In this document: piece after piece, positions 3,875 to 43,048 of the stretch | Layout: every line of letters begins with the position of its first letter | How positions within the stretch are numbered: the first letter of the stretch is position 1 | NCBI GenBank assembly: GCA_964016885.1 | Contig: CAXHJY010001396.1 | Location: forward strand, 1-64,000 | Source of the DNA: Eledone cirrhosa | Lineage: Eukaryota | Length of the DNA stretch: 64,000 bases | Direction of reading: 5' to 3' | The notes under the pieces: generated by a model | Database searches by the model: none | What the model saw: the letters and a program-made list of their open reading frames with translations, nothing else | What the model was told of the DNA's origin: nothing | Program-made: the position numbers and the translations under genes

Positions 3875-3912
<38 letters not shown>

Positions 3913-4466
3913 ACTGCCCACGGAAACACACACACACACATTACTGCCCACGGACACACACACACATTACTACCCACGGACACACACACACTACTGCCCA
4001 TGGACACACACACACACACACACACACTACTGCCTATGGACACACACACACACACTACTGCTCACACACACGCACACTACTGCTCACACACACGCACACT
4101 ACTGCCCACACACACACACACACACTACTGCCTATGGACACACACACACACACTACTGCCCACGGACACACACACACACTACTGCCCACGGACACACACA
4201 CACACACTACTTCCCGCGGACACACACACACACTACTGCCCATGGACACACACACACACACACACTACTGCCTATGGACACACACACACACTACTGCCCA
4301 CGGACACACACACACACTACTGCCCACGGATACACACACACACACATACACACTACTGTCCACGGACACACACACACATAACTGCCCACAGACACACACA
4401 TTACTGCCCACGCACACACACATAAATGCCCACGCACACACACATAACTGCTCACACACACATTAC
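1683..4466. repeat. Intronic minisatellite, core ctactgcccacgga followed by variable (CA)n
   Basis: On the order of 100 visible units with variable CA spacers; fills almost the whole intron 1637-4483. Confidence 0.97.
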
Positions 4467-4835: not shown

Positions 4836-5448
4836 TTCGCTCTCTCTGGAAAAAAAATCAACTGTGTTCAGAACTGGAGATGGGATGGGCTCCGCCAGAT
4901 TTAAAGTGTCTAAGACACACCATATCAAGACGAAATATAAGTAGCATAAATAATTATTTCTACATTTGGCACAAGGCCAGCAATTATCCCAGTGCATTAC
5001 TGGTACTTTATTGTATCGACCCTGTAAGGATGAAAGGCAAAGTTAACCTCGGCAGGATTTGAACTCAGACCGTAAAGGGTCGTAACTCTATGCTGCAAAG
5101 CATGACCTCTGATCCCCACCAATAAAATAAAACAACTCAATTTAAACTCTACAAGATCAATATCCAATAAAATAACACAACCCATATTACACACACCACA
5201 GAGGAAATACTAAAATAACACAAGAAACAACAAGTTCAATACATGCAGTACACTAACAGGAGGAGGTTATACTCCCCACCTGCACAAAAATATAAACACA
5301 CAATACTGCACACACCTCAAGAACACGGAGGTGCACCAAGTGATGCAGTAGAAATTCCCATGAAACTATCAAAAAAATGATGATGAGGAGGATAATGTTG
5401 GCGACGACAACGATAGATAGATAGATAGAAAACGCATGTTCACCATAC

Positions 5449-15052: not shown

Positions 15053-16005
15053 TGGAAATTCTCTATGTGCAAATCCCCGAATCATTCGTGAACGAATGGA
15101 GTCTTTACAACTCGCGAATATCTATATAAAATTAAGTTAACACTCAATAAATAGGAAAACATTTTTCCATTAGTTAAAAAGGCAATAAAGTACGATTTTC
15201 TGCTGCGTCACATGTATGTATGGACCTGTAACTCTTGAGGGAGTCGTCGGGGCGCCGTATTGACATACGCCTTTTCTAGGACATTTTTAAACCTGACAGA
15301 GCCCATCTCCTCTCCAGGTCTGAATACAGCAGATTTCATCCAGAGAAGGCTAGTGAATGAGCGAAAGAAAGAGATATAGACGAAGAATCAACCCCAGTAC
15401 TAGACTGGTACTTCTTTTATCGATATTCAATGAATGAAGGGCAGAGTTGACATCGGCGGGATTTGAACTCAGAAAGCAGAGAATCGGAACGAATACTGTA
15501 AAGCAAAGGTTCTCAACCCATTTCGGCCAGACTCCCCCTTTTGCCCCTCGAAATCACGAAACGCCCCCTACCCTATTTTTCCATTTTTCAATATACTACT
15601 GATTTTCATATCAGTAGATTATTGGGCCAAAACAAGTTATGTTAGAATCTTTAAAAAATACTCGTACGAATTAAATACAAAAAAGTTTCAGAAGCAAGCT
15701 ATTTCAAGTTATATATTTTTGAAAAATAGACGTGAATGTTCTCAAAGATTTGATCTCCGTCGAAAAAGCTTTTTTTTTTAATTCTATATTTCACTGTTAG
15801 CTGTTGTAATATTTTGAGTGAATAGACAATTCTACAATTCAATTTCTTACCTTTCTCTGAAATAACAAACTCAGGGGGAAAATAATACCTTGCAAAATAA
15901 AATACTTCGTAGCAATATAAAATCCTTAGTAGCAACGAATGAATTGAGAAGCTTGGTGACAGTGAGAAAGCATTATCTGTATCCCTTATATATATACATA
16001 GATTG

Positions 16006-16059
<54 letters not shown>

Positions 16060-16079
16060 ATACATACATACATATATAC

Positions 16080-16110
<31 letters not shown>

Positions 16111-16484
16111 CATACATACATACATACATACATACATACATACATGCACACACACACTTGTGTGTGTACCTTGGTTTTGGTACAGAAAGAATTTTATCTC
16201 CAGTTTTTATTGCCAGGTCAAAGGCCACTGCTCTTTTCAACAACGCCAAATAACAACGCCTTATATAAATATATATATATGAAGAGAGAAAGAGGGAGGG
16301 ATAGAGAGAGTAAGGAATGTGTGTGTGTGTGTGTGTGTGTGTGAGTGTTTGGTACACGTTTAGCTATCTATTTATCTATCTCCAACAGGGGGCTCAAACA
16401 TGCGGCCCGCGAACTACTTTTCTGTGGCCCGTGGTAGAACCTATATATAGAAAAATATATATATATATATGTGTGTGTATAATA

Positions 16485-16688: not shown

Positions 16689-16737
<49 letters not shown>

Positions 16738-16741
<4 letters not shown>

Positions 16742-19044
16742 TAATTTAATATATCAACTAACATAGGCGCACAGATGCACGTCCATGCCAGCAAATACAC
16801 AGGTTATGTCATAGTACCTAGGTGGTTCAATGCAGGAGGGTGCAGAACAATAATATAAAAGACGTAAGATGAGAAAATATTTTTTAAAAAAATTTTTTTT
16901 AAATCTTTTACTTACTTACTTAAATTTTCACTCCAGCTAATTAGTTTCTGCAATGGGATAAAGACAGTTACGTAATCCAACTGTCGAGAATTCATTGCGT
17001 CATCAGGGAGTCTATTCTCAGCTGAGTCTCCAGGCAATGCGCGGACACTGGCGGCTCATATAAAAATAATAATAATTCGGTAGAAAGAACAGCTGGCGAG
17101 GACTGGATTCCATGTACTGAAATTCTCACTGCTTCTAGTCAAATGGCCGATTCTAAAGAATCAATCACGTGACACAGAGGCTAGTTAGAAGGAATGGGAT
17201 GGTAAGATGACTGACGCCTACTAACACCCCAAAAAAAATTTAGAAGTGGTTTTGGCAGGTTTGCTCGACAAATCAGTGATTTGGAGATAAATATAGATAA
17301 TTTAATATATCAACTAACATAGGCGCACAGATGCACGTCCATGCCAGCAAATACACAGGTTATGTCATAGTACCTAGGTGGTTCAATGCAGGAGGGTGCA
17401 GAACAATAATATAAAAGACGTAAGATAAGAAAATATTTTTTTAAAAAATTTTTAAAAAATCTTTTACTTACTTACTTAAATTTTCACTCCAACTAATTAG
17501 TTTCTGCAATGGGATAAAGACAGTTACGTAATCCAACTGTCGAGAATTCATTGCGTCATCAGGGAGTCTATTCTCAGTTGAGTCTCCAGGCAATGCGCGG
17601 ACACTGGCGGCTCATATAAAAATAATAATAATTCGGTAGAAAGAACAGCTGGCGAGGACTGGATTCCATGTACTGAAATTCTCACTGCTTCTAGTCAAAT
17701 GGCCGATTCTAAAGAATCAATCACGTGACACAGAGGCTAGTTAGAAGGAATGGGATGGTAAGATGACTTACGCCTACTAACATCCCAAAAAAAATTTAGA
17801 AGTGGTTTTGGCAGGTTTGCTCGACAAATCAGTGATTTGGAGATAAATATAGATAATTTAATATATCAACTAACATAGGCGCACAGATGCACGTCCATGC
17901 CAGCAAATACACAGGTTATGTCATAGTACCTAGGTGGTTCAATGCAGGAGGGTGCAGAACAATAATATAAAAGTCGTAAGATAAGAAAATATTTTTTAAA
18001 AAAAATTTTTTTTAAATCTTTTACTTACTTACTTAAATTTTCACTCCAACTAATTAGTTTCTGCAATGGGATAAAGACAGTTACGTAATCCAACTGTCGA
18101 GAATTCATTGCGTCATCAGGGAGTCTATACTCAGCTGAGTCTCCAGGCAATGCGCGGACACTGGCGGCTCATATAAAAATAATAATAATTCGGTAGAAAG
18201 AACAGCTGGCGAGGACTAGATTCCATGTACTGAAATTCTCTCTGCTTCTAGTCAAATGGCCGATTCTAAAGAATCAATCACGTGACCCAGAGGCTAGTTA
18301 GAAGGAATGGGATGGTAAGATGAGACTCAGCTGAGAATAGACTCCCTGATGACGCAATGAATTCTCGACAGTTGGATTACGTAACTGTCTTTATCCCATT
18401 GCAGAAACTAATTAGTTGGAGTGAAAATTTAAGTAAGTAAGTAAAATATTTTTTTAAAATTTTTTAAAAAAATATTTTCTTATCTTACGTCTTTTATATT
18501 ATTGTTCTGCACCCTCCTGCATTGAACCACCTAGGTACTATGACATAACCTGTGTATTTGCTGGCATGGACGTGCATCTGTGCGCCTATGTTAGTTGATA
18601 TATTAAATTATCTATATTTATCTCCAAATCACTGATTTGTCGAGCAAACCTGCCAAAACCACTTCTAAATTTTTTTTGGGGTGTTAGTAGGCGTCAGTCA
18701 TCTTACCATCCCATTCCTTCTAATTAGCCTCTGTGTCACGTGATTGATTCTTTAGAATCGGCCATTTGACTAGAAGCAGTGAGAATTTCAGTACATGGAA
18801 TCCAGTCCTCGCCAGCTGTTCTTTCTACCGAATTATTATTATTTTTATATGAGCCGCCAGTGTCCGCGCATTGCCTGGAGACTCAGCTGAGAATAGACTC
18901 CCTGATGACGCAATGAATTCTCGACAGTTGGATTACGTAACTGTCTTTATCCCATTGCAGAAACTAATTAGTTGGAGTGAAAATTTAAGTAAGTAAGTAA
19001 AAATTTTTTAAAAAATTTTTTAAAAAATATTTTCTTATCTTACG

Positions 19045-19051
<7 letters not shown>
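16738..19051. repeat. 556-bp tandem array (2.8 direct plus 1.3 inverted copies), retrozyme / Penelope pLTR-like
   Basis: The marker ataatttaatatatc recurs at 16741, 17297 and 17853; orientation flips at ~18323; bounded by (TA)n. Confidence 0.93.
18341..18422 (+). ncRNA. Type I hammerhead ribozyme (also at 18897-18978+, 16930-17011-, 17486-17567-, 18043-18124-)
   Basis: actcc-CTGATGA-c-gcaatg[...gacagtt/aactgtc...]cattgc-a-GAAA-ctaattag-TT-ggagt: stems I, II and a palindromic III are all present. Confidence 0.8.
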
Positions 19052-19136
<85 letters not shown>

Positions 19137-19174
19137 GTAGATTTACGTATATATATACACACACATATATATAT

Positions 19175-20244
19175 ATCTTCATCAGGCAGTAACGGTCCAC
19201 AGAATCAAAGGCCTTCCTAAAGTCAATGAAAACCATGACCGCAGGAAGGCAGTTTGCTCTGGCTTATGGAATCCCCAAGAGGATAGTGGACCTGATATCA
19301 CTGCTCTACACCAACACCAAAGCCCAAGTCATTACACCTGATGGGATGACAGAGTTCTTTGAGATACTGGCTGGAGTGCTCCAGGGAGATACATTGGCTC
19401 CCTACCTTTTTATCATCGTAGTGGACTATTGTATGCGCCTTGCACTGGAGAAACACCAGGACTCTGGCTTTACTGTAGCACCGGCTCAGAGCAGGAGAGT
19501 TGGGGCGAAAAAGGTATCGGATGCTGAATTTGCCGACGACATAGTTTTGGTGACAAATACAGTGAAGGAGGCAGAGGATTTGATGCGGGAGGTTGAGACT
19601 GTGTCGATGAGTGTGGGGCTGAGAATGAATGAGACTAAAACAAAATATCTGGGAGAGAATGTTGAGAAGCCAGAGGGGATCACTAATGTAGGCGGGAAGC
19701 CGCTGGAATTGGTTGAGGACTTCCTGTATTTGGGAGCAAAGATTGGGAATACGGAAGATGATGTGGTTGAGAGGAAGAGCAAGGCCTGGGCGGCGTGTCA
19801 CAGCTTGAGATCGGTGTGGAAGTCGGACCTTCGTAGAGACCTGAAAATCCGCCTCTTCATTGCTGTAGTGGAGTCTGTGCTGCTGTATGGGTCTGAGACT
19901 TGGACACTGACCAAGAGACTCACTCAGATGGTGGATGGGTGCTACACGAGAATGCTGAGGATGGCTCTGAACATTAATCAGTATACACTGAGGATGAAAA
20001 ACTCAGAGCTGTATGGGAGCATCCCAAAAGTCAGCTCAAAAGTGACACAGAGGAGACTGAGGTTGGCTGGACATGCTCACCGACATCCAGAGTTGACATT
20101 GCACTCAGTGCTCCTTTGGGAGCCCCTACATGGACACACTAGAAGAGGAAGACCAAGGTTAACATATGTTGATGCCCTAAGGACAGACACTGGTCTGTTG
20201 GAGATGCAGGATATGGCAGCGATAATGAGGGACAGAGACCGCTG

Positions 20245-20247
<3 letters not shown>
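19175..20247 (+). mobile_element. RTE-group LINE fragment (RT and C-terminus) with an inverted 5' segment
   Basis: ORF 19226-20323 has GVLQGDTLAPYLF, FADDI, FLYLG, LLYGSETW and RGRP; the preceding motif [14 protein letters not shown] lies on the minus strand at 19175-19255. Confidence 0.92.
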
Positions 20248-20597: not shown

Positions 20598-21290
20598 CTA
20601 CATACATACATATTATATATATATATATATATATATATAATGTATAAAAATCAATACAAAATAATTACCTCATTACCAGAGGTTTCCCGAATAAAACGAA
20701 TACGAAAGAGACGTCTTCATTCGTTCGTCGGACGAGGCAATATAAAACATAAATATTTTGAAAGTCTCCTCAAGAAATGCAAGAAAAATTATATATATAT
20801 AGATGAAGGTAATACAATAGACATATAAAATATAAAATATATAAAAAAATATTATAAGAAATATATTTAGGTGTGTGTATATGTATGTATATACTCACAG
20901 ATATACATATGTATATATGTACAAATGCGTGTGTATAATGAAAATGTGTGCGTAAATATATGTATGAGGGCGAGAATATTTGTGTATATGTAACGATGGA
21001 CACACATGATATGAGTGTCTGTTTGACAGGTATCCAGAGAAAACAGGGTGTTAGATACGTTATAAGAATATGAAGGCACGAGTATAAACACACACGCACG
21101 CGCGTACACTTATATGCGGAAGAAAAAGAGGTAAGGGAATGTAATAGTAAAAAGAAAGTATCAATGTGCTAACGATTGCACCAGCTCGCGCCTTATTTTC
21201 ACCAGTTACAATGCGATATGAAATATTGGTTCTACCACGGGCCACAGATAAGTAGTTCGCGGGCCGCATGTGGAGATAAATAGATAGATA

Positions 21291-24200
21291 TGTTTCTTTT
21301 ATTTGCCACCAGGGCATCAAAAGTGGGACAAGTACAATGGGGGGAGTTTACAAAACAAGGCGTCCTCAATAGGGAGGAAGCAATAACAATATATAAAAAT
21401 AAAATAAAATATAACAAAAAATAAAATTATAACAAAATCCTCAATAGAGAGGAGGCGCCTTGGGGGGTCGCACACACCCCCGAAACAAGTGTGCAACCCT
21501 TCTCCTCAGGAGCACAGAGAGGCGGTGCTCCCTCGTTCCTTCCTCTTTTCCACCTACAGGCTTATGTAAAGAGAAGGCCCATTCACACGGGCCATTCTCG
21601 CCACTTTCACCCACCTTTCATAAAAACGACTGGGGTGGACCACCTCTCTCTCTCCATCCTGATCCTTCTTCCGAAATGATATCGGAAGAAACGGACCAGT
21701 TGTTGGCCAGAGAGAAAGGTGCTTGACCTCAGTCCTTTCAGACGCGTCCACCATACAACTTCTTTCACCATGGCTATTACGCACAGAAACACCGTCTCTC
21801 CTTCATCTTTGAAGGGGGGAGGCGGCTTGATCATTACAATAGATTCGGTGGTCAACCGGATCGGTCCCACCCTTGACAGCAGTTGTTCGACAAGCCCCAC
21901 AGATCGGCTACGCCCGAGCAGTGTACCAATGCGTGTGCAACGGTTTCCTCGTCGCACACGCATCTGGGACAGATCTTTTTGGCGGGGTCCCTACCCGGGC
22001 GCCCGTGTCTGTAGAGCTTTTCTCGAACGGGTAGAGCCCCTCGGTAGCACTGCCAGGCCAGGGACTTCTGGAAGTTGTCCATAGGTCCCGGGCTGAATGT
22101 CCTACTGAACAGGCTGGCCAGTTCGTCCTCCTCCATGTCTAGGGCTTCTCTGAGGGCGTCGTCGCACCTGCTGCGTACCAGCCCTCTATAGAATGTTGCG
22201 GTGGAGTCTCCACTGATAACCGGATCCGCCTGCCAGAGGGCGGTGAGCGCCTGGGCACACTCAGTGTGCCAGGCGCCCAGTTTTCTCGGTCTTTGCTTGA
22301 CCCAGGATTGCAGCTCGGTGAGTGAGACGAGTCTGGGAAAGGTTCGTCTCACAAACGAGGCCCACACCGGTTGACCGGTGAGGAATACGTAGATGTGCCG
22401 TAGCCTTAATGCGTGTTTACGCATCATTAGCCACGGCATCCCCAGCCCTCCTTTCGAAGGGTGTTGACAGCAGATGGATCTCCTCACCATAGGAGCCCGC
22501 CTCTTCCAAAGGAATTGGAAGAGCGCGCGCTCCATCTTGGCGAGGGTTTCCCTTGGGCAGGGCACTACGGTCAGGCGGTAGTAGATGACGGACGCTATAT
22601 AGGTGTTCGCCACCTCCGCCCGACCTTTCAGGGATATATGCAACTGGCCCACTTCTGGGTCAGTGCAAACACCCTGTTCGTAACCTCCGCCCAGTTTTTC
22701 TCCACCTGGAGGTCCGGTCCGAACCAGACCCCGAGCAACTTCACCGGGCCCTCCGTCCAGCGTCCGACGACGCCATCGGAGGGCATCGGTCTGCCCCTCC
22801 ACGTGCCGAGTTGCAAACCGATCGACTTGTCCCGGTTCAGCTTAGCCCCTGTGAACCTTTCGTACTCCTCCAGTAAGGTGCCGACCGCCTCGATTTCGGA
22901 GGCCGTCGACACTATTACTGTCACGTCATCGACGTAGGCCGACACCGCTTTCCGCAATCCCGGTTCCAAAGGGATGCCTTGCAACAACTCCAACTTCCGC
23001 AATAGTGGCTCGAGAGTCAACACATACAGATGGGAGGAGAGAGGGCACCCTTGTTGGATGGACCGCGCGATTTTGAACGGCTCCGAGAGGTAGCCGTTCA
23101 CCTTGACCCTAGAGCAGATGCGGCTGCTGTGCATAGCAGTCATCCAGCCCCTGAAAACGGGTCCGAAGCCTGCCGCCGCTAGCACCGCATCCAGGTAACC
23201 ATGGTCGACCCTATCGAACGCCTTAGATTGATCCAAGTTGATCAGAGCCCCACCAAAGCCAGGTTCGTTCCCAACCCTCTCTATGATGTATCACATGAGG
23301 TGGAGGTTGTCATGGATGGACCTGGACGGGATAGCGCATGTCTGCACATCTCCCACCAGGTTGCCCACGACAAGCGCCAACCTCTTTGCTAGCATCTTGG
23401 CCAAAATCTGTAACTCTGTATTTAGCAGAGTTATGGGCCTGAAGTTACTTATTTCGTCCCCCTTGTTCTCGTCCTTCCTCACTAGCGTGACTACGCCCTT
23501 GGTCACAGTACAGGGAATTCTCCCGTTCTGTTGCCAGTTGCAGTAGACCGCCTCGAGGAGATCGGGGAACAAGTCCGGCATAGCTAGATATAATTCGTAA
23601 GGAAGACCATCGAGACCCGGGGATTTGCGTTTGACGCATTGGCTCAGCACGTCCTCTATCTCAGCGGCCGAAATCGGCTCCTCGCAGGACTTCGCCTCCC
23701 TGTCCGAGAGACGCGGCAGGCCGTCGAGGTATGGACCGAAGTCCACATCCCCAACCGGCTCCCCGCCCCTTCCGAACAGTCGGGCAAAGTGCCTTTGAAA
23801 GACATCTGCTTAGGCTCAAGAATCGCCCGTCCATCCTGGTCTCGCAAAGACCGGATGGTGGATTTAGTTCCACTGTTGGCCTCTGTCACGCGGGCCCAGC
23901 TAACAGCTTTGGTCCCCTCGTTCCCTAGAGCACGTATTTTAATTCGGGCAACGCAGCCTTCGTGCTTTGCGTCGAAAAACTGGCTCAAAGCCGTTCTCGA
24001 CGCTAGCACTCTGGCTACGTCGCCGCTTCTAATTGCCTATTCTACTCTATCTATTAGCTCCCTTTCCTTCCTATTCCTATCCGCAGCTAGAACCTTACTA
24101 AATTCTATCGAGACTACTCTAATCTCTCTCTTTAGAGATACCCACCACCTGCTGTTGACGATCGCTCCAGTCAACCGTTCCTTAACTAACGTACTAATCC

Positions 24201-26736
24201 GATCCCTGTAAGCTCTACTTGCCGGCAAGGACAAGTTGAGCTTCCAGTAACCGGGGCCCTGTCTATGCGTTCTATCAAGGTTGACCATGTAGGTCACCAA
24301 CTTGTGGTCTGAATAGCCAACCATGAGCATTTCTGGACAACTTAAAAAGTCCCTGTCCTTATTTCTAACTAAAAATCTATCTAGGTACGACCTAGATGAT
24401 CCGCTGCGATTTGACCAAGACCAGGTTGGCACCGTCGGAAAATCTAGTCGAAATCTATCGGCCAGGTCAAATCGGCCGAGTAACCCCTTGAGGCTGTTGC
24501 ACCCCTCTCTATCGGGACATACCCCTGCATAGTCTCAACGGGCATCCAGGATATCATTCCAGTCCCCCACTAAAAGCAGGGAACGGGACGTCCCTAGAAA
24601 AGACTCCAGACGCTGGAAAAAGTCGGGCCGCTCTGTCCCAAAAGGGGCATATGCGGCTACCAGCCTAAAGGCTCCACCTTCACCACTGCCAAGGTCCAGC
24701 ACCACCAGTCGACCCCCTGGGTCCAAGTGAACTATCTGTGTTGCAAGGCCCAGATGTTTTTGCAGCAGAACGACAACCCCACCCCCACCTCCGGGCTGAC
24801 AGAGAGATGCGTGCATCTCAAAGTCGTCAAAGGTGGGTGCTAGCTGCCGCATGCTGCTGATCCGGGCCTCGCAGATAACCATCACATTTATAGATTGTGA
24901 CCTGAGGTCATTTAGAAGCATTGCTTGCTTCCAAGATGAGCCCAGGCCACGCGCATTTAGACACCCTACTCTTAGCACAGCCATGTTGGTGGTAAGGAGA
25001 AAAGGCACTTACCTCTCTGCGTCCCGGGAAACGGGCCGCTCAATTTCCATGCTGGTTGGGGATGGGTTTTTGGGTGGGGTGGTGGTTTGTGGAAGTGAAG
25101 GGGCATCAGTGTGTTGTGGGGTTGGGGTGTTTGTGGTTGAGTGGGTGTCTGAGTGGGGTGGGGGTGAAATTTTTTAGGAGGACGCGGTTGATTGGTTTGG
25201 CGCAGGGGGGGGGGGAGGGGCACGTCCTCCGTGAAATTTATTTTCAGTGTTTTGTAAAAGTTCATTGGGACTTTAATCATATTTAAATGAGGTAGTCCCA
25301 CAGCAGTTATAAAGTTAGGCCCTTCAGTTTGGACCGAAGGGTTTGCTGAAATTGTTTTCAGTAATTCTTTGTTGTCTGTGTTCATGTATGTATATTGTAA
25401 GGTCTTTTTTTGTGTAGCAGTTAGTGTTGTGTGACAGGGAGGAGTGGTTTGTGTGTAGTTTGTGTTCTCTTGGGGAGGGTTAAAGTTAACATGTGTGTCT
25501 GTGGTGCGTCTCCTCTTCTTTCTTTTTACTTGTTGGAAGGGATCTTTTTCGTCTTGCGACGAAAGGGGTTCGTCTTCCTTGTTGGGTGGGAGGGGTATGT
25601 TTTCTGGTAGTGTTTGCGGTGTGTGTGTTTTTGTATTTGTTTTGGGTGGGGAGGGATTTGGGTGGGACAGTATTCTGTGTTATTTTTTCACGTGTTTGTT
25701 GTTGTTGTTGTTGTTGTGGTGGTGGTGGTGGTGTTGGTTTTTGTTGTTGTTGTTGTTGTGGTTGTTTTTGTTGTTGTTGTTGGGGTTGTGTTGGTGTTGG
25801 TAGCAGTGTTTTTTTCTGTGTGAGCTGGGGACAGGCAGCCCTCAGGTGACCTCTATTGCCACAGAGGTAACAGGAGGGACGCCTACCCTCCACAATAGTT
25901 AATCCTTTTGTATGAAAGTGAAGTCTCTCATCGCTTCTTTCAGTACTAACTGAATGTCAGCTTGAGATGGTTGTGCTGGTTTTTTTGTTTTATTTAAAAT
26001 TGTACGGAATACGACAGTTCGTAATTCCGTCTGTTTTTTTAGTTCTGGAGGTGAATTTATAGAAAACGAACCGTTTTCGCCAAAAGATATATATTTCTTG
26101 GCTTTTTCCAGCATTTGAAATATCTTCAAGCACATACGTGACTGATAATTTAGCCGTTTGTGCAAAAGATATTTTGTTTTCGTTGTTGGTGTTTGTATTG
26201 TTTTGTTTCTCGTCGTTTGAGTTGTTTTCATCTTTGTTGTTGTTGTTGTCTTTCTCGTTTGGTGTGTGGATACTTGTGACGTTTGTGTTGTTGTTGTTTT
26301 TGTTGTCTTTATTGTTGCTGTTGTTGTCGTTGTTGTTGTTGTTGTTTTCAGTTTCTTGTATAGTTGTGGCTACATCTAGTGGTCGGTCAACAGGTGAAGA
26401 CAATTCTTCCTCTGGCTGACCTCTGCCTTTGGCATCTGCTGCTGTGACAGTGGCAGGGGGAAGCTGTGAGTATAACTTCCCCTTTCCTTCTTTGATTGTT
26501 GGTGAAGATGCTTCAGCCATTTTTCTCAAAATAGGGTTTTTCGAAATTTTTCGAAAGATAAAATGTTTACAATACTATTTCGCCCAAAGGCGCAGAATAT
26601 TTTGAGAGACCGACCAGATCAAAATTTGACCTGGCAGTCCCTCTACAAAATGGTACAAAAATGAAAGTTTACAGTTCACAATTTCCGGATAAATTTAAAC
26701 GAAACTTACCGAGCGAGCTCAGCACATGTGTCCATC
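21291..26736 (-). mobile_element. Tx1-like (L1 group) LINE, copy 1: full-length ends, frameshifted, ORF1 internal deletion
   Basis: APE (CLNARG, GDWN, SDH), RT (PGLDG, LDQSKAFD, QGCPLS, YVDD), C-terminal CPRC...HALVHC; ORF1 knuckle CYLCGNRGHLRAAC. Confidence 0.93.
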
Positions 26737-26751
26737 GTAAAGAGTTAGATA

Positions 26752-29700
26752 TGTTTCTTTTATTTGCCACCAGGGCATCAAAAGTGGGACAAGTACAAAG
26801 GGGGGAGTTTACACAAAAAGGCGTCCTCAATAAGGAGGAGGCAATAACAATATATAAAATAAAATAAAATATAACAAAAATAAAATTTATAACAAAATCC
26901 TCAATAGAGAGGGGGCGCCTTGGGGGGTCGCACACTCCCCCGAAACAAGTGTGCAACCCTTTTCCTCAGGAGCACAGAGAGGGGGTGCTCCCTCGTTCCT
27001 TCCTCTTTTCCACCTACAGGCTTATGTAAAGAGAAGGCCCATTCCCACGGGCCATTCTCACCACTTTCACCCACCTTTCATAAAAACGACTGGGGTGGAG
27101 CACCTCTCTCTCCATCCTGATCCTTCTTCCGAAATGATATCGGAAGAAACGGACCAGTTGTTGGCCAGAGAGAAAGGTGCCTGACCTCAGTCCTTTCAGA
27201 CGCGTCCACCATACAACTTCTTTCACCATGGCTATTACGCACAGAAACACCGCCTCTCTTCATCTTTGAAGGGGGGAGGCGGCTTGATCATTACAATAGA
27301 CTCGGTGGTCAACCGGATCGGTCCTACCCTTGACAGCAGTTGTTCGACATAGCCCCACAGATCGGCTACGCCCGAGCAGTGTACCAATGCGTGTGCAACG
27401 GTTTCCTCGTCACACACGCATCTGGGACAAATCTTTTTGGCGGGGTCCCTACCCGGGCGCCCGTGTCTGTAGAGCTTTTCTCGGACGGGTAGAGACCCTC
27501 GGTAGCACTGCCAGGCCAGGGACTTCTGGAAGTTGTCCATAGGTCCCGGGCTGAATGTCCTACCGAACAGGCTGGCCAGTTCGTCCTCCTCCATGTCTAG
27601 GGCTTCTCCGAGGGCGTCGTCGCACCTGCTGCGTACCAGCCCTCTATAGAATGTTGCGGTGGAGTCTCCACTGATAACCGGATCCGCCAGCCAGAGGGCG
27701 GTGAGCGCCTGGGCACACTCAGTGTGCCAGGCGCCCAGTTTTCTCGGTCTTTGCTTGACCCAGGATTGCAGCTCGGTGAGTGAGACGAGTCTGGGAAAGG
27801 TTCGTCTCACAAACGAGGCCCACACCGGTTGACCGGTGAGGAATACGTAGAGGTGCCGTAGCCTTAATGCGTATTTACGCATCATTAGCCACGGCATCCC
27901 TAGCCCTCCTTTCGAAGGGTGTTGACAGCAGATGGATCTCCTCACCATAGGCGCCCGCCTCTTCCAAAGGAATTGGAAAAGCGCACGCTCCATCTTGGTG
28001 AGGGTTTCCCTTGGGCAGGGCACTACGGTCAGGCGGTAGTAGATGATGGACGCTATATAGGTGTTCGCCACCTCCGCCCGACCTTTCAGGGATAGTTTGC
28101 AACTGGCCCACTTCTGGGTCAGTGCAAACACCCTGTTCGTAACCTCCGCCCAGTTCTTCTCCACCTGGAGGTCCGGTCCGAACCAGACCCCGAGTAACTT
28201 CACCGGGCCCTCCGTCCAGCGTCCGGCGACGCCATCGGAGGGCATCGGTCTGCCCCTCCACGTGCCGAGTTGCAAACCGATCGACTTGTCCCGGTTCAGC
28301 TTAGCCCCTGTGAACCTTTCGTACTCCTCCAGTAAGGTGCCGACCGCCTCGATTTCGGAGGCCGTCGACACTATTACTGTCACGTCATCGGCGTAGGCCG
28401 ACACCGCTTTCCGCAATCCCGGTTCCAAAGGGATGCCTTGCAACAACTTCCGCAATAGTGGCTCGAGAGTCAACACATACAGATGGGAGGAGAGAGGGCA
28501 CCCTTGTTGGATGGACCGCGCGATTTTGAACGGCTCCGAGAGGTAGCCGTTCACGTTGACCCTAGAGCAGATGCGGCTGCTGTGCATAGCAGTCATCCAG
28601 CCCCTGAAAACGGGTCCGAAGCCTGCCGCCGCTAGCACCGCATCCAGGTAACCATGATCGACCCTATCGAACGCCTTAGATTGATCCAAGTTGATTAGAA
28701 CCCCACCAAAGCCGGGTTCGTTCCCAACCCTCTCTATGATGTATCGCATGAGGTGGAGGTTGTCATGGATGGACCTGGACGGGATAGCGCATGTCTGCAC
28801 ATCTCCCACCAGGTTGCCCACGACAAGCGCCAACCTCTTTGCTAGCACCTTGGCCAAAATCTGTAACTCTGTATTTAGCATAGTTATGGGCCTGAAGTTA
28901 CTTATTTCGTCCCCCTTGTTCTCGTCCTTCCTCACTAGCGTGACTACGCCCTTGGTCACAGTACAGGGAATCCTCCCGTTCTGTTGCCAGTTGCAGTAGA
29001 CCGCCTCGAGGAGATCGGGGAACAAGTCCGGCATAGCTAGATATAATTCGTAAGGAAGACCATCGAGACCCGGGGATTTGCGTTTGACGCATTGGCTCAG
29101 CACGTCCTCTATCTCAGCGGCCGAAATCGGCTCCTCGCAGGACTTCGCCTCCCTGTCCGAGAGACGCGGCAGGCCGTCGAGGTATGGACCGAAGTCCACA
29201 TTCCCAACCGGCTCCCCGCCCCTCCCGAACAGTCGGGCAAAGTGCCTTTGAAAGGCCTCACACATCTTCTTAGGCTCAAGAATCGCCCGTCCATCCAGGT
29301 CTCGCAAAGACCGGATGGTGGATTTAGTTCCACTGTTGGCCTCTGTCACGCGGGCCCAGCTAACAGCTTTGGTCCCCTCGTTCCCTAGAGCACGTATTTT
29401 TCTTCGGACAACGCAGCCTTCGTGCTTCGCGTCGAAAAACTGGCTCAAAGCCTTTCTCGACGCTAGCACTCTGGCCACTTCGCCGCTTCTAATTGCCTCT
29501 TCTACTCTATATATTAGCTCACTTTCCTTCCTATTCCTATCCGCAGCTAGAACCTTACTAAATTCTATCGAGACTACTCTAATCTCTCTCTTTAGAGATA
29601 CCCACCACCTGCTGTTGACGATCGCTCCAGTCAACCGTTCCTTAACTAACGTACTAATCCGATCCCTGTAGGCTCTACTTGCCGGCAAGGACAAGTTGAG

Positions 29701-30197
29701 CTTCCAGTAACCGGGGCCCTGTCTATGCGTTCTATCAAGGTTGACCATGCAGGTCACCAACTTGTGGTCTGAGTAGCCAACCATGAGCATTTCTGGACAA
29801 CTTAAAAAGTCCCTGTCCTTATTTCTAACTAAAAATCTATCTAGGTACGACCTAGATGATCCGCTGCGATTTGACCAAGACCAGGTTGGCACCGTCGGAA
29901 AATCTAGTCGAAATCTATCGGCCAGGTCAAATCGGCCGAGTAACCCCTTGAGGCTGTTGCACCCCTCTCTATCGGGACATGCCCCTGCATAGTCCCAACG
30001 TGCATCCAGGATACCATTCCAATCCCCCACTAAGAGCAGGGAACGGGACGTCCCTAGAAAAGACTCCAGGCGCTGGAAAAAGTCGGGTCGCTCTGTCCCA
30101 AAAGGGGCATATGCGGCTACCAGCCTAAAGGCTCTACCTTCACCACTGCCAAGGTCCAGCACCACCAGTCGGCCCCCTGGGTCCAAGTGAACTATCT
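26752..30197 (-). mobile_element. Tx1-like LINE, copy 2: 5'-truncated within the endonuclease
   Basis: 983-aa ORF 27235-30186 with an intact YADD; near-identical to copy 1; frameshift close to the C-terminus. Confidence 0.95.
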
Positions 30198-30512
30198 ATA
30201 GATAGATAGCCACTAGTCGACCCCCTGGGTCCAAGTGAACTATCTATAGATAGATAGATATGTTTCTTTTATTTGCCCCCAGGGCATCAAAAGTGGGACA
30301 AGTACAATTGGGGGAGTTTACAAAACAAGGCGTCCTCAATAAGGAGGAGGCAATAACAATATATAAAAATAAAATAAAATATAACAAAAAATAAAATTTA
30401 TAACAAAGTCCTCAATAGAGAGGGGGTCGCACACACCCCCGAAAAAAGTGTGCAACCCTTCACCTCAGGAGCACAGAGAAGGGGTGCTCCCTTGGTCTTT
30501 CATCTTCCTCAC

Positions 30513-33500
30513 CTATAGTCTGATGTAGAGTGAAGGCCCATTCACACGGGCCATTCTCGCCACTTTCACCCATCTTTCATAGAAACGGCTGGGGTGCAGC
30601 ACCTCTCTCTCCATCCTGATCCTTCTTCCGAAATGATATCGGAAGAAACGGACCAGTTGTTGGCCAGAGAGAAAGGTGTCTGACCTCAGTCCTTTCAGAC
30701 GCGTCCACCATACAACCTCTTTCGCCATGGCTATTACGCACAGAAACACCGCCTCTCCTTCGTTTTTGAAGAGGGGAGGCGGCTTGATCGTTACAATAGA
30801 CTCGGTGGTCAACCGGATCGGTCCCACCCTTGACAGCAGTTGTTCGACATAGCCCCACAGATCGGCAATGCCCGAGCAGTGTACCAATGCGTGTGCAACG
30901 GTTTCCTCGTCGCACACGCATCTGGGACAGACCTTTTTCGATGGGTCCCTACCCGGGCGCCCGTGTCTGTAGAGCCTTTCTCGAACGGGCAGAGCCCTTC
31001 TGTAGCATTGCCAGGCCAGGGACCTCTGGAAGTTATCCATGGGTCCCGGGCTGAATGTCCTACCGAACAGGTTGGCCAGTTCGTCTTCCTCTATGCCTAG
31101 GGCTTCTCCGAGGGCGTCGTCGCACCTGCTAACCACCAGCCCTCTATAGAATGACGAGGTGGATTCTCCACTGACAGCCGGGTCCACCTGCCAGAGAGCC
31201 GTGAGCGCCTGGGCACACTCGGTGTGCCAGGCGCCCAGTTTTCTCGGTCTTTGCTTGACCCAGGATTGCAGCTCGGTGAGTGAGACGAGTCTGGGAAAGG
31301 CTCGCCTCACAAACGGGGCCCACACCGGTTGACCGGAGAGGAATACCTGAAGGTGCCGTAGCCTTAATGCGTGTTTACGTATCATCAGCCACAGCATCCC
31401 CAGCCCTCCTTTCGAAGGGTGTTGACAGCAGATGGATCTCCTCACCATAGGAGCCCGCTTCTTCCAAAGGAATTGGAAGAGTGCGCGCTCCATTTTGGCG
31501 AGCGTTTCCCTTGGGCAAGGCACCACGGTCAGGCGGTAGTAGATGACGGACGCTATATAAGTGTTCGCCACCTCCGCCCGACCTTTCAGGGACAGTTTGC
31601 ACTCGGCCCACTTCTGGGTCAGTGCAAACACCCTGCTCGTCACCTCACCCCAGTTCTTCTCCACCTGGAGGTCTGGTCCGAACCAGACCCCGAGCAATTT
31701 CACCGGGCCCTCCGTCCAGCGCCCGACGACGCCATCGGAGGGCATCGATCTGCCCCTCCACGTGCCAAGTTGCAGACCGATCGACTTGTCCCGGTTCAGC
31801 TTAGCCCCTGTAAACCTTTCGTACTCCTCCAGTAAGGTGCCGATCGCCCCGATTTCCGAGGCCGTCGACACCATTACTGTTACGTCATCGGCTTAGGCTG
31901 ACACCGCTTTCCGCAATCCCGGTTCCAACGGGATGCCCTGCAACAACTCCAACTTCCGCAGCAGTGGCTCTAGAGTCACTACATACAGAAGGGAGGAGAG
32001 AGGGCACCCCTGTCGGATGGACCGCGCGATTTCGAACGGCTCCGAGAGATAGCCGTTCACCTTGACCCTAGAGCAGATGCGGCTGCTGTGGATGGCATTG
32101 ATCCAGCCCCTGAAAACGGGTCCGAAGCCTGCCGCCGCTAGCACCGCATCCAGGTAACCATGGTCGACCCTATCGAATGCCTTAGATTGATCCAAGTTGA
32201 TCAGGGCCCCACCAAAGCCGGGTTCGTTCCCAACCCTCTCTATGATGTATCGCATGAGGTGGAGGTTATCGTGGATGGACCTGGACGGGATAGCACATGT
32301 CTGCGCATCTCCCACCAGGTTGCCCACGACAAGCGCCAACCTCTTTGCTAGCACTTTGGCCAAAATCTGTAACTCTGTATTTAGCAGAGTTATGGGCCTG
32401 AAATTATTTATATCGTCCCCCTTGTTCTCGTCCTTCCTCACTAGCGTGACTACGCCCTTGGTCACAGCACAGGGAATTCTCCCGTTCTGTCGCCAGTTGC
32501 AGTAGACCGCCTCGAGGAGTTCGGGGAACAAGTCCGGCATAGCTAGATATAGTTCGTATGGAAGACCATCGAGACCCGGGGATTTGCGTTTGCCGCATTG
32601 GCTCAGCACGTGCTCTATCTCAGCGGCTGAAATCGGCTCCTCGCAGGACTTCGCCTCCCTGTCCGAGAGACGCGGCAGTCCGTCGAGGTATGGACCGAAG
32701 TCCACGTCCCCAACCGGCCCCCCGCCCCTTCCGAACAATTCGGCAAAGTGCTTTTGAAAAGCCTCGCACATCTGCTTAGGTTCAAGGATCACCCGTCCAT
32801 CCTGGTCTCGCAAAGACCGGATAGTGGATCTGCTCCCTCTTTTGGCTTCTGTCACGCGGGCCCAGCTAACAGCTTTGGTCCCCTCGTTTCCCAGAGCACG
32901 TATTTTGCTTTGGACGATGCAGCCTTCGTGTTTCGCGTCGAAGAACTGGCCCAGGGCCGTTCTCGACGCTAGCACTCTGGCCACGTCGCCGCTTCTAATT
33001 GCCTCTTCTACACTATCTACCAAGTCCCTTTCCTTCCTATGTCTATTGGAGGCTAACTCCTTACTAAATTCTATAGAGACTACTCTAATCTCTCTTTTGA
33101 GAGATCCCCACCACCTGCTGTTGACGATGGCGCCCGTCAACCGCTCCTTAACTAAAGTGCTAATCCGGTTCCTGTAAGCCTTACTTGCCGGTAAGAACAA
33201 GTTGAGCTTCCAGTAACCGGGTCCCTGTCTATGAGTTCTGTCAAGGTTGACCATGCAGGTCACTAATTTGTGGTCTGAATAGCCAACCATGCGCATTTTT
33301 GGACAACTTAAAAAGTCCTTATCCTTAATTCTAACTAAGAACCTATCTAGGTACGACCTAGATGTTCCGCTACGATTTGCCCAAGTCCAGGTTGGCGCAG
33401 TCGGAAAATCTAGTCGATATCTATCGGCCAGGTCAAATCGACCGATTAACCCTTTGAGGCTATTACACCCCTCTCTATCGGGACAGGCCCCTACGTAGTC

Positions 33501-33974
33501 CCAGCGTGCATCTAGGATACCATTCCAGTCCCACACTAATAGCAAGGAGCGGGACGTCCCTAGAAAAGTCTCCAGACGATGGAAGAAGTCCGGCCGCATT
33601 GACCCGAAAGGGCCGTAGGCGGCTACCAACCTAAACGCTCCGCCTTTACCACTGCCAAGGTCCAGAACCACTAGTCGACCCTCCGGGTCCAAATGTACCA
33701 TCTGTGTTGCGAGATCCAGATGTTTTTGCAACAGAACGACAACTCCACCCCCACCTCCGGGCTGACAGAGAGATGCGTGCATCTCAAAGTCATCAAAAGT
33801 GGGGGCCAGCTGTCGCACGTTGCTGATCCGGGCCTCGCAAATAACCATCACATCTATACGTTGTGACCTGAGGTCATTTAGAAGCATTGCTTGCTTCCAA
33901 GTTGAGCCCAGGCCACGCGCATTTAAACAGCCTACTCTTAGCATAGCCATGTTGGTGGTGAAGAGAAAAGGCAC
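30513..33974 (-). pseudogene. Tx1-like ORF2 (APE-RT-CCHC) with a nonsense codon replacing the Y of YADD
   Basis: Copy 3 reads VSA*ADDV where copy 2 reads VSAYADDV. Confidence 0.9.
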
Positions 33975-35756
33975 TTACCTCTCTGCGTCCCGGGTATCGG
34001 GCTGAACAATTTCCATTAGGGTGGGGGATGGGTTGTTGGGTGGGGTGGTGGTTTGTGGAAGTGTAGGGGCATCAGTGTGGTGTGTGGTTGGGGAGCTTGG
34101 AGTTGTGTGGGTGTTTGGGGAGGGCGTGGGATAGTTTTTTAGGAGGACGCGGTTAATGGGCCCGACGCAGGGGGGACCCACGTCCTCTTTAAAATTGTTT
34201 TTTAAAGTTTTATAGGTGTCCTGTGGGGCCTTAATCATTTTGAGGTGGGGGAAATCCCCTGCCTGGGTGAAGTTAGGCCCTTGTGTTTTTATTAGATTGT
34301 TGTACACAATGTTTAACAGTTTTTTGTTTCTTGTGTTTATGTATGTGTATGCATGTTTTTGTTTTTGTGTGGTGTTTTTTGTTTGCTGTTGTTGTGAGCT
34401 CTTTTGTGTTGGTGTCAGTGTTATGTTTTGGGGAGGGGTTGTTTTCATTTGTGTGTCTGAGGTGTGTTTTCTTTTTTTTCTTTTGATTGTGTGGAAGTGC
34501 TCCTCCTCGTCTGACGACGAACTAGGGTCATCTTCCGCGTTGGAGGGGAGGGGTATATTTTCGGGTTGTGTTTGCGGTACGGGTGTTTTGGAAATTGTTT
34601 TTGTTTTTTGAGTGGAGGGGATGGGTTGGACATTGTTTTGTTTTGGTTTGAGCTGTGGTGGTTGTTTTTGTAGTTGTAGTTGTGGTGATTGTGTTGGTTG
34701 TGCAGTTGTTGGTGGTGTAGGCAGGATTGGGGTTTTCTTATTAAGTTGGGGACAGACAGCCCTCGGGTGACCTCTGGTTCCGCAGAGGTAACACGAGGGC
34801 CGTCTACCCTCAACGGTAATGTTGATGAAGGTTAGATCATCCAGTATGACGCGTTCAGGGATCTGGGCGATCCTTTCGGGCCTCATTTGAACTACAAGTT
34901 CGAGGCTCGTTCCACTGAACGCGTCACCCGATGCCTTTCCCATGGACACCAGCATGTCATCCTCCAGGTCCAGAAAACCTGTCAAAACCCACCATATGTC
35001 CATAATCGGCAGGATGGTGTGGATTTTTATTTTTTGTGTTCTTCTACCCATGTACGTAGGGTAGAAGGTGTATGCGGTGGATGTGATTGGTTTGATGGAC
35101 AGTTTCACTGCTGTGTCCCTGTCCTTCATGAGAATGGATAGACTCCCGTAGAGTCTATCCTTCTGAATGAAGGTGATGTCCTTCATGACGTCTTTTAAAA
35201 CCAGCTCTATCTCACTCTGTGATGGTTGAGCTGGTTTTTTACTTTTGTTCGAGATTGTCCTAAACATGACCGTGTTTAGGAGTCTCTGGCTTTTTAGTTC
35301 CGGGGGGGGATGGATTGTGAATGAACCATTTTCTCCGTACACTATATATTTTTTCGCATCTGCCAGTAGCTCCTTCGCTTTGGTTATATCTACTGGCAGA
35401 TAGTCGAGGGTTTTACTTGTCGTCTCGGCGAAGGAGAAATTTTGTTTGTTTGTGTTGTTGTTGTCGTTGGTGGTGTTGTTGTTATCATTGTTGTTGTTGT
35501 CACCGTTATTGGTCTTGTTGTTGTTGTTATTGTTATTGGTGTTGTTTTCGTCCGTCGCATTGTTGTTGTTGCTGTTGCTGCTGGTTCTTTGGGTTGTTGC
35601 CATGGCAACGTCAAGTTGTCGGTTAACAGGTGGAGAGAATTCTTCCTCTGGCTGACCTTTCTTCTTGACCTCTGCTACTGTGACAGTGGCAGGGGGAAAC
35701 TGTAAGTTTACCTTCCCCTTTCCTCCTTCGAATTTTGGTGAAGAAGCTTCGGCCAT
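33975..35756 (-). CDS. Tx1-like ORF1 (zinc-knuckle nucleic-acid chaperone)
   Basis: CYLCGTRGHPRAVC knuckle, poly-N and P/Q/T low-complexity tracts, KRKKRK. Confidence 0.88.
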   Translation of the reverse strand: MAEASSPKFEGGKGKVNLQFPPATVTVAEVKKKGQPEEEFSPPVNRQLDVAMATTQRTSSNSNNNNATDENNTNNNNNNNKTNNGDNNNNDNNNTTNDNNNTNKQNFSFAETTSKTLDYLPVDITKAKELLADAKKYIVYGENGSFTIHPPPELKSQRLLNTVMFRTISNKSKKPAQPSQSEIELVLKDVMKDITFIQKDRLYGSLSILMKDRDTAVKLSIKPITSTAYTFYPTYMGRRTQKIKIHTILPIMDIWWVLTGFLDLEDDMLVSMGKASGDAFSGTSLELVVQMRPERIAQIPERVILDDLTFINITVEGRRPSCYLCGTRGHPRAVCPQLNKKTPILPTPPTTAQPTQSPQLQLQKQPPQLKPKQNNVQPIPSTQKTKTISKTPVPQTQPENIPLPSNAEDDPSSSSDEEEHFHTIKRKKRKHTSDTQMKTTPPQNITLTPTQKSSQQQQTKNTTQKQKHAYTYINTRNKKLLNIVYNNLIKTQGPNFTQAGDFPHLKMIKAPQDTYKTLKNNFKEDVGPPCVGPINRVLLKNYPTPSPNTHTTPSSPTTHHTDAPTLPQTTTPPNNPSPTLMEIVQPDTRDAER

Positions 35757-36090
35757 TTAAAAAAATATTGACTTTTCAACAAGAAAAATCTTTTTTTTTT
35801 TGTTTAACTATTTCGCCTAAAGGCGTAGAATATTTTGAGAGACTGACCAGATCAAAGTTTGACCTGGCAGTCCCTCTACAAAATGGTCCAAAAATTAAAG
35901 TTATCAGACAAGAATTTCTATAGAAATTTAAACAGAACTTACTCAGCAAGTTATACGCGTGTGTCCATCCCAGAGATACATAGATTAGATAGATAGATAG
36001 ATAGACGTGAACCAAACACACACACATTTCTTACTCTCTCTGTCCCTCCCTCTTTCTCTCTTCATTTATATATATATATATGGGGGGTGC

Positions 36091-36153
<63 letters not shown>

Positions 36154-36305
36154 TGCGTGTGTGTGTGTGTGTGTGTGGAGCGTTGTTATTTGGCGTTGTT
36201 GAAAAGAGCTGTGGCCTTTGACCTGGCAATAAAAAACTGTAGACAAAATTCTTTCTGTACCCAAACCAAGGCACACACCCTCACAAGTTTGTGTGTGTGT
36301 GTATG

Positions 36306-36355
<50 letters not shown>

Positions 36356-38591
36356 TATCTATATTTATATATAAGGGATAAAAATATTGCTTTCTCAGTC
36401 ACCAAGCTTCTCAATTGATTCCTTACTACTTATTTTGCTACCAGGTATATTATTTTGCAAGGTACTATTTTTCCCATAAGTTTGTGATTTCAGAGAAAGG
36501 TAAGAAATTCTTCATATTTTGCATCTTTTGTATTTTGACTTTGCAGTTTCAATTGTCTATCCACTCAAAATATTACAACAGCTAACAGTGAAATATAGAA
36601 TTTAAAAAAAAAAAGCTTTTTCGACTGAGATCAAATGTTTTTTTTAATTTCAAAAATATATCATTTGAAATAGCTTGCTTTTTTTTTGGACTTAAACTCT
36701 TTTGTATTTAATTCGTACGAGTATTTTTTAAACAATCTAAGATAACTTGATTTGGCCCAGTAATCTACTGATATCAAAATCAGTAGTATATTGAAAAATG
36801 GAAAAATAGGGTAGGGGGGGGGGGGCGTTTCGTAATTTCGAGGGGCAAAAGGGGGCGTTTGGCCAAAATGGGTTGAGAACCTTTGCTGTAAAGCATTCTA
36901 TTTGACGTTCTAACCACTGCCAATTCGCCATCTGGTCCATCATATAATATCTATCAAATTTTTTACGTCAGAAAGAGGGAGATTCAATTCTAGACAAAGA
37001 ATTACCACTCGTTGTTTATATACACCTTTCTAGTGAGTAGCGGGAGAGGGGCAACACCCAAGACCTTTTCAGGCCTTCACATATTGGTGAGATGAATGTA
37101 ATTTATGTTCATATTGGAGTTCTGTAGATTAACGTCTATTTGAAAACGAGGATAAGAATATTCAGTGGAGTGTGAAGTAAAAAGGATTGGTAAAAGTAGT
37201 TTTAAATGTTTGGAGAAGTGAAACTCAGAAGAGGGTGACAAAAGGGGGGATGATGGGACCTAGAATAGATTAGGAAGGAAAAAATATGCAACTGCCTTCT
37301 GAAGATGATGGGGAGTTATTATAGCTAGCCGTAAAAATACAGAGATTAGAAACATTTTGTCCGTAAAATATTGATTTCTTGAAGGCGTATGGCCTAGTGG
37401 TAAGTGTGTTCTTGACCAAAACACTTTGTTTCACATTGCTCAGCATACTCATCGAAATGAGTATCAGCAATACCTGAGGATTTAACACTGCGATGGACTG
37501 GCGCCCTTTCCAGGGAGGAGTCTTGTACTCTTGGTCACTTCACGCCACGGAAATCGGGATAAGCACCGGCTTGATGAACCTCCATCTCCGAGACAGACTT
37601 TTAGACTAGTGATTATTGTGAGAGAAATTTAGTGAAACAGACAAATAACCTTGTTTTAGGATGACTGTGCCTAGCGACAGTACCGCACCAATAGTGCGAG
37701 GAGTACTCTATTGTAGGTCATATATGTGCTTTGTATTTTATGTCTCCATATTTTATATTTAGCTTCTGGGATGCAGTGTTACAAATGTACGATCTTCATG
37801 AAAACTCATCAGATATTATGAGGTCCAGTATTTTTAGAGTGTTTAACCTTTTTAGTGCTGTAGGCGAGATAACTCGTCCTAACATTTTTTAACTCTTTTC
37901 CAACAGTTCATAACTTCAAAGTTATGAAGTCGTTTCCAAAAGTTCATAACTTCAAAGCTAAATGGGGTTACTAGTTTATTGATGTGACGTTTGTCAATCA
38001 TTCAGATATGTGTTGTTAATAAATGTTTGCTTTAAAAAATAGTCATTTTACTGGAAAATATACGCGGTAGTCAACAGGTTAAAGGATTTGGTTTTATGTT
38101 GTTTGTAAGTAGAGAGAGTATTTAAAGATTCTATGTATAGTAATAATGTTTTAATGCTGTTAAAGGAAATTAGTTTATCATACCCTCGTTGGAGAGTGTT
38201 TTGTTTTTTCTTAAGTCAGCAATGAGGTGTCTATGTTGCGTATGTCCGGGAGGTTTAGGAGAACTAAAGAGTGATGTAATCTTCAGAGATGTGTGTGTGT
38301 TGTGACAGTAGAATCATTACGGTATAAAAGAAAGTGTGTAAGAGACATAACCGAAACCAGAAGTAGATCGTCATTGATCGCCATTGGAGTAGAATGGAGT
38401 ACCGGTGACACACGTTGCGGTGAAGCAGGTCTAAAATTTGAAAGATCAATACAGCCCAATATGATCAGCTTAACCTGTTATAGTTGAAGATGTTATTGTT
38501 GGTTTTGTTAAGATCGTCATAGTTTAATCCTTGGTCAGCTCTGGCTGAGCAGACCTGTGATCAAAAGTATTGCAGCCATGACGATGTTCTC

Positions 38592-42606: not shown

Positions 42607-43041
42607 TAAAATAAAGTTAAATAAAAGTCAAATGATTAAAATTTAGCTTCGTTTATTACTGCTATATATATTTCAGTGACAGCCATCTTTGGCTGTGACC
42701 TCTTCAGGCAGTTTGAATTAGTATGGTATAGACAAGTACATATGTTGTTTAGGTGTATGATATTGTCAATACTCTGATATGCCCAGTTCCTTGTTGGGTT
42801 GTTAATTCACTGGGGAACTGGAGTCATATGACTCCAGTTCCCCAGTGAATTAACAACCCAACAAGGAACTGGGCATATCAGAGTATTGACAATATCATAC
42901 ACCTAAACAACATATGTACTTGTCTATACCATACTAATTCAAACTGCCTGAAGAGGTCACAGCCAAAGATGGCTGTCACTGAAATATATATAGCAGTAAT
43001 AAACGAAGCTAAATTTTAATCATTTGACTTTTATTTAACTT

Positions 43042-43048
<7 letters not shown>
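42607..43048. repeat. Perfect 442-bp spacerless palindrome
   Basis: Centre ggagtcat|atgactcc at 42827/42828; the arms match to taaaataaagttaaat / atttaactttatttta. Confidence 0.95.
42943..42997 (+). ncRNA. Type I hammerhead ribozyme (mirror copy at 42658-42712, - strand)
   Basis: actgc-CTGAAGA-g-gtcacagcca/tggctgtcac-t-GAAA-tatata-TA-gcagt. Confidence 0.82.

Follow-up and report, generated by a model that had tools for sequence, protein, structure and literature searches.

Why three LINEs should lie head to tail in one short GATA tract is the question raised by this locus, which sits in a 64-kb stretch of octopod DNA (the window: positions 1 to 64,000 of Eledone cirrhosa contig CAXHJY010001396.1). 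Sequence reading and self-BLAST place three minus-strand copies in the tract (table). The reading we favor, with a probability of roughly 0.6, is that three insertions by one L1-group LINE lineage into one GATA tract likely reflect a preference for (TATC)n/(GATA)n, the target likely being re-created each time.

Copies 1 and 2 are identical at 3362 of 3437 aligned columns (97.8%), and copy 3 matches copy 1 at 4575 of 5349 (85.5%; in 400-column bins across the 5' UTR and ORF1, 65-77%) and copy 2 at 3140 of 3434 (91.4%). Three separate insertions are likely: copy 3 shares 85-91% identity with the other two, and copy 2 is 5'-truncated and lies behind the intact 3' end of copy 3. The latter arrangement argues against an origin by duplication, and tail-to-internal junctions have been described as a hallmark of elements that inserted repeatedly into a favored site (PMC5932611, cited from part of its text, like the other papers below). 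The first-pass annotation called copy 3 a diverged subfamily and counted at least two insertions; the divergence stands, and the junctions indicate three insertions, not two.

All three copies end in ...GGCAAATAAAAGAAACA, lack poly(A), and run straight into TATCT (at 21291, 26752, and 30261), as first annotated; the ends come just after AATAAA. In element sense, the bases past the 3' end are TATCTATCT for copies 1 and 3 and TATCTAAC for copy 2, so that TATCTA forms the first six in 3/3 copies. The GATA repeats that had been reported at the 5' junctions of copies 2 and 3 are also present: CTATCTATCTA plus one base lies upstream of copy 2, and upstream of copy 3 is a (CTAT)n tract whose TATCTA end is about a dozen bases from the 5' end of the element. 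A single TATCTA, only 6 nt of repeat, directly precedes copy 1. Judged from these junctions, a 6-bp target-site duplication of TATCTA likely fits the three copies, the fit being firm for copies 1 and 2 and, with some ambiguity, loose for copy 3. The order of the three insertions is not readable from the junctions. Perfect GATA runs of at least 12 nt occur only four times in the window, and three of these are at stack junctions. Elsewhere, a (GATA)4.5 tract at 5412-5429 is empty, so some GATA tracts in the window are unoccupied.

The junction between copies 2 and 3 also contains a 48-bp tandem duplication that the annotation did not mention. Its unit combines 36 nt from the 5' end of copy 2 with 12 nt of GATA repeat, and two positions differ between units. 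The truncation of copy 2 begins exactly at an internal AGATAG inside this duplication, a detail that the mechanism proposed below leaves unexplained; GATA-type 6-mers occur at 19 positions in 5,455 nt of element, the truncation point being one. Together, the truncation point and the GATA tract form a 14-bp palindrome.

The stack lies within, and splits, the right arm of its host, a foldback element (15504-36885) that we take to be hAT-like. Elements of that type have terminal inverted repeats and an 8-bp duplication, and both features are present here. BLAST aligned the two arms in four segments: 15491-16072 with 36898-36292 (79.6% identity), 16072-16259 with 36372-36180 (83.9%), 16263-16331 with 36081-36013 (92.8%), and 16398-16446 with 21271-21223 (95.9%). 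At the place matching the stack, the left arm reads ...GCTATCTATTTATCTATCTCC with no insertion, and since this mirror arm carries the tract without an insertion, the GATA tract existed before the LINEs arrived. The arm had been described as an empty-site equivalent, which is accurate in that the arm is real and its tract empty; indels distinguish the two arms, 14 bp of them directly beside the GATA tract, so the left arm is a paralogue and not the exact pre-insertion allele.

Several other repeats accompany the foldback element. Its arms hold a second terminal-inverted-repeat-like motif (16386-16446), the right-hand copy of which lacks the outer 14 nt, and its interior contains a 556-bp unit at 16731-19054, present in about three forward repeats followed by inverted ones, at 97-98% identity. 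Between two (TA)n tracts inside it, a 5'-truncated reverse transcriptase (RT) fragment of another LINE (19170-20247, plus strand), presumably RTE-like, has a DUF6451 match. Further out, the window contains a minisatellite with a (CA)-rich 26-bp unit (1688-4444), about 148 copies of a 49-50-bp satellite (48430-55683), and a perfect 442-bp palindrome (42607-43048) that adjoins (TA)n and may be an assembly fold-back.

Table. Features of the LINE stack and of its host element (window coordinates)
Feature	Position	Strand	Remark
Left 8-bp duplication CTGTAAAG	15496-15503	+	flanks host element
Left arm, non-autonomous foldback element	15504-16446	+	empty GATA tract at ~16363-16383
Inner end of right arm plus distal GATA tract	21223-21290	-	
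Distal GATA tract	21272-21290	-	TATCTA at 21285-21290
LINE copy 1	21291-26745	-	near full length, 5455 bp
TATCTA spacer, copy 2 3' end / copy 1 5' end	26746-26751	-	likely target-site duplication
LINE copy 2	26752-30197	-	5'-truncated within endonuclease
48-bp tandem duplication, copy 2/copy 3 junction	30162-30257	.	contains palindrome CTATCTATAGATAG
GATA repeat, copy 2 5' junction	30198-30209		
LINE copy 3	30261 to ~35973	-	full length, diverged subfamily
Copy 3 ORF2	30513-33950	-	APE endonuclease, RT, C-terminal zinc motif
Copy 3 ORF1	33975-35756	-	593 aa, CX2CX4HX4C knuckle
Proximal GATA tract, copy 3 5' junction	35974-36005	-	
Right arm, outer part	36013-36885	-	
Right 8-bp duplication CTGTAAAG	36886-36893	+	flanks host element

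In the mechanism that we propose, the endonuclease would nick the GATA strand after ...TAGATA, the freed 3' OH would prime reverse transcription from the poly(A)-less RNA end ...AAUAAAAGAAACA, and a second nick about 6 nt away would duplicate TATCTA. Since each insertion would thereby duplicate TATCTA, the next copy would be offered the same motif in the same orientation and could re-use the regenerated TATCTA beside its predecessor. The process may be assisted by pairing between read-through RNA and the target, although this is conjecture. Double insertion is a described route to tandem transposable elements (PMC5932611).

The coding anatomy identifies the element as an L1-group non-LTR retrotransposon: it has an N-terminal APE endonuclease, an RT, a C-terminal cysteine motif, a separate ORF1, 5' truncation, and a probable short duplication (ambiguous at copy 3). 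ORF2 matches PF03372 (APE), PF00078 (RT), and PF13966 (zf-RVT). It is interrupted by a single in-frame stop (31893-31895) in copy 3, and copy 2 retains a 986-aa open frame (partial APE, RT, and zf-RVT) with one frameshift near the C-terminus. Copy 1 has three stops and several frameshifts in ORF2, some of which may be read errors, and its ORF1, compared with that of copy 3, has a deletion of 334 nt. Among references limited to solved structures, the RT is nearest to human L1 ORF2p (E 1e-41 vs 1e-17 for R2). The predicted endonuclease model (pLDDT 91) best matches the L1 endonuclease (TM ~0.8), with catalytic residues E39, N143, D202, D226, and H227 conserved.

Within the L1 group, the element likely belongs to the Tx1 clade. 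ORF1 proteins of that clade bear a CCHC zinc knuckle, and copy 3 ORF1 carries one (CYLCGTRGHPRAVC), itself without a Pfam match. The element shares the APE fold and catalytic residues of human L1 ORF2p and the Tx1L endonuclease (PDB 1vyb and 2v0r; PMC1950540) and differs in lacking a poly(A) tail, in the CCHC knuckle of its ORF1, and in its target. The APE hairpin loop, which influences nicking, has 11 residues in Tx1L (PMC1950540); this descriptive trait is absent from copy 3, where the loop (T189-S199) has nine residues, as in L1 (T192-S202). Because the element's own loop has the L1 length, a profile match to the LTx chimera was rejected as evidence for Tx1. Any link between loop length (9 vs 11) and target choice is speculation.

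Among named proteins, the nearest comes from Argonauta hians (61% identity over 52% of the query), and matches in the ESM Atlas were only to unnamed RT/APE clusters. A search with the ORF1 region gave no match among 1,790 candidates, and no Rfam family matched within the 64-kb window. For the copies in the window, z scores of -0.3 to +0.3 (3/3) give no support to a 3'-end hairpin ahead of AATAAA. A splice-donor-like GGTAAGT lies at or just past the ORF1 stop in copies 1 (~25005) and 3 (33970-33980) and in 5/5 examined loci of the sister families described below (L081, L088, L095, L098, and L106), and GTAAGT also occurs about 35-45 nt inside the element 5' end.

Whether the preference extends beyond this stack can be judged from the flanks of other copies. 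Contigs from four public runs were mapped onto 26300-36200, and loose ends, where contigs leave the reference, were judged by eye against the reference continuation. The LINE family is abundant and diverse: in run X1, 38,369 contigs mapped, 5,555 of them at 99% identity or more. Summed depth, which is not a copy number, stayed below the level of most of ORF2 across ORF1, the pattern expected from 5' truncation. The mapping program chose 24 of 4,640 loose ends for listing, none of them at a 3' end and with 30234-30398 skipped as repeat. Thirteen of these 24 were on the 5' side, nine leading into diverged element sequence and four into other DNA. GATA repeats on the expected strand appear in two of these four informative flanks, at 27597 in run X1 (three contigs) and at 27143 in run X5 (one contig), two runs with the same organism label from the same study; the other two, at 27165 and 31491 in run X5, are non-GATA. 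The flank at 27597 has about 17 nt of diverged element sequence before the GATA repeats and may come from another subfamily, and the GATA tract at 27143 has neighbors that differ from the host arm.

A GATA-type 30-nt flank is rare by chance, occurring in 56 of 70,410 windows here (0.08%) and in 391 of 127,100 in host DNA of the metagenome-assembled genome (MAG) described below (0.31%). Against this background, two GATA flanks in four are far from chance (probability of at least two, 4e-6 to 6e-5, under a criterion set after the rows had been viewed). Other copies lying in random sequence with no GATA on their 5' side would have refuted the annotation's proposal; the flanks do not refute it in this way, but two of the four informative ones lack the repeat. 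A published criterion calls a family target-specific when its target recurs at more than 20% of flanks (PMC4494074); here, the figure is 2/4 outside 5' flanks plus one locus, a very small sample. As a preference, (TATC)n/(GATA)n targeting is supported by the junctions of the three copies, by the mirror arm with its empty tract, and by two of the four flanks. The support does not extend to strict specificity, given the two non-GATA flanks in a tiny sample chosen by the program. The preference is probably leaky, not absolute.

Relatives of the element show how much weight stacking itself can carry. Of the 47 loci that an alignment search of genome contigs brought up, 40 belong to a single MAG record, CAXXMW01. 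This record, a bacterial MAG in GTDB, carries many microsatellite-rich contigs of animal DNA, largely arrays of sister LINEs (L081-L124). A single-protein search of genome contigs gave 19 stretches, none related, and a search of viral contigs gave 85, also none related; the 17-nt 3' motif had 34 matches in viral sequences, which were dismissed as chance (longest alignment, 19 nt). In a quick RT tree of 58 rows, from which 11 candidates had been dropped as short or without an RT match and reference Tx1 rows were absent, a 28-row clade (SH-aLRT 100) holds the window copies and all nine ORF2 rows from the MAG, apart from plant and fungal L1-like rows. The sister ORF2s share about 42% identity with that of copy 2, and an 11-residue endonuclease loop was found in 5/5 sister sequences. 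Their ORF1s match PF00098 above the cut-off in 2/2 cases, and copy 3 ORF1 is homologous to a sister ORF1 (23% over 209 aa, E 1e-12).

The sister arrays run head to tail in units of 6.4-6.9 kb with open ORFs, and their 3' ends likewise come soon after AATAAA without poly(A); a hairpin precedes the AATAAA in 4/4 cases (z -1.4 to -2.2). We counted 62 sister 3'-end junctions on 15 contigs, with up to 12 on one 91-kb contig; three of the 62 lead into 5'-truncated units, and none carries GATA repeats when read by eye. Each array is family-homogeneous and has its own unrelated spacer of 11-18 nt. At 4/4 array ends that run out into host DNA, the initial 11-18 nt are found again between units, and two array flanks searched in the MAG, which contains little host DNA, each matched only themselves. 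Stacking is therefore a habit of the clade. Since the sister families do it at spacers that are not microsatellites, it is weaker evidence for a microsatellite target than the annotation supposed, and the case for GATA depends on the flanks and not on the stack.

Alternatively, the specificity could reside in the RNA. TATCT(A) would then be a transcript 3' tail able to pair with any nicked GATA strand, and the nuclease would be unspecific. The TATCTA that follows all three poly(A)-less 3' ends is consistent with this, as are the L1-like length of the endonuclease loop, unlike that of Tx1L (PMC1950540), and published discussion of 3' microsatellite tails that influence priming in RTE LINEs (PMC13295347). 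However, only 6 nt of repeat lie past the copy 2 3' end, the empty arm already holds GATA, and a tail alone cannot give 5' GATA at truncated copies unless the target had it, which would still be target preference; we regard an RNA-guided origin as unlikely. The homogeneous sister arrays with their unrelated spacers, together with the two outside flanks that lack GATA, could instead suggest that a founder arrived by weak preference and that later copies homed on its 3' junction, with no genome-wide microsatellite specificity. Such self-stacking at one locus seems distinctly unlikely, since the two outside GATA flanks are far above background and the same site was used by a subfamily that is 9-15% diverged.

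Two further explanations fare worse. The target could be the host foldback transposon and its GATA tract incidental, comparable to Tx1L in Tx1D or Tx1-Mar in Mariner-N4; the stack does sit in a DNA-transposon arm, and Tx1 families aimed at DNA transposons have been described (PMC4494074), but the 27143 flank, with neighbors unlike the host arm, makes this very improbable. Local tandem duplication or an assembly artefact, to which the head-to-tail order, the 48-bp duplication, and the possibly erroneous frameshifts of copy 1 might point, is largely excluded by copies that differ by 2-15%, each with an exact 3' end, and by the truncation of copy 2. We therefore retain repeated insertion with a GATA preference as the favored reading.

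Microsatellite-targeting LINEs of the Tx1 clade are known: Kibi targets (TC)n and Koshi (TTC)n (PMC4494074, citing Kojima and Fujiwara 2004), and crocodilian Tx1 families target (TTCC)n/(TTTC)n (PMC4494074). The Eledone element resembles these as an APE-type L1-group LINE lying in a simple repeat in fixed orientation. It differs in its octopod host and in its TATC/GATA unit, which is not a pure pyrimidine run, so the target is (TATC)n and not the (TC)n, (TTC)n, or (TTYC)n of the Kibi/Koshi lineage. Tandem elements have been attributed to double insertion in Drosophila R1 arrays and jockey dimers (PMC5932611), and tandem SINEU-3 copies sandwich a target-site duplication (PMC4494074). The stack shares with these its head-to-tail copies, the duplicated target between them, and tail-to-internal junctions from 5' truncation, and is unlike them in its 6-nt microsatellite spacer and in the presence of two subfamilies at one site. 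In octopus, L1-Tx1, the L1-group class listed for O. vulgaris, comprises 80 consensus families and 56 Mb, with 13 recently active families reported from O. vulgaris (PMC13282606, PMC8967140). Our element probably falls in the same annotation class and is possibly present there as an unnamed consensus; the part covered of PMC13282606 (main text and one supplementary file) does not contain the word "target" and describes neither a target nor stacking. No GATA-targeting LINE and no targets of octopus Tx1 elements were found in the literature searched, although Repbase, most subscription papers, and the supplementary target alignments of PMC4494074 lay outside that coverage and may list one.

What is new here is the GATA target and the host lineage; microsatellite-seeking Tx1 LINEs and the double-insertion mechanism were known. 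Few APE-type LINEs have a defined target, and endonuclease site choice is only partly understood, so a near-intact family that prefers GATA, together with relatives that use other sites and have a different DNA-probing loop, provides a testable pair. The stack also represents a clear early stage in the passage from transposon to satellite by double insertion, with long arrays in the sister families. More tentatively, and as a possibility that we hold at rather less than even, each family in this octopod clade of poly(A)-less L1-group LINEs may home on its own short site, GATA repeats in this family and unrelated sites of 11-18 nt in its sisters, rebuild that site at each insertion, and grow arrays of a dozen coding-intact units. 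If so, nature would have supplied a series of endonuclease variants, with 9- or 11-residue loops, matched to different targets, and the clade would include the first described GATA-seeking retrotransposon; such a series could help to work out how APE nucleases choose their targets or to direct insertions into a non-coding repeat.
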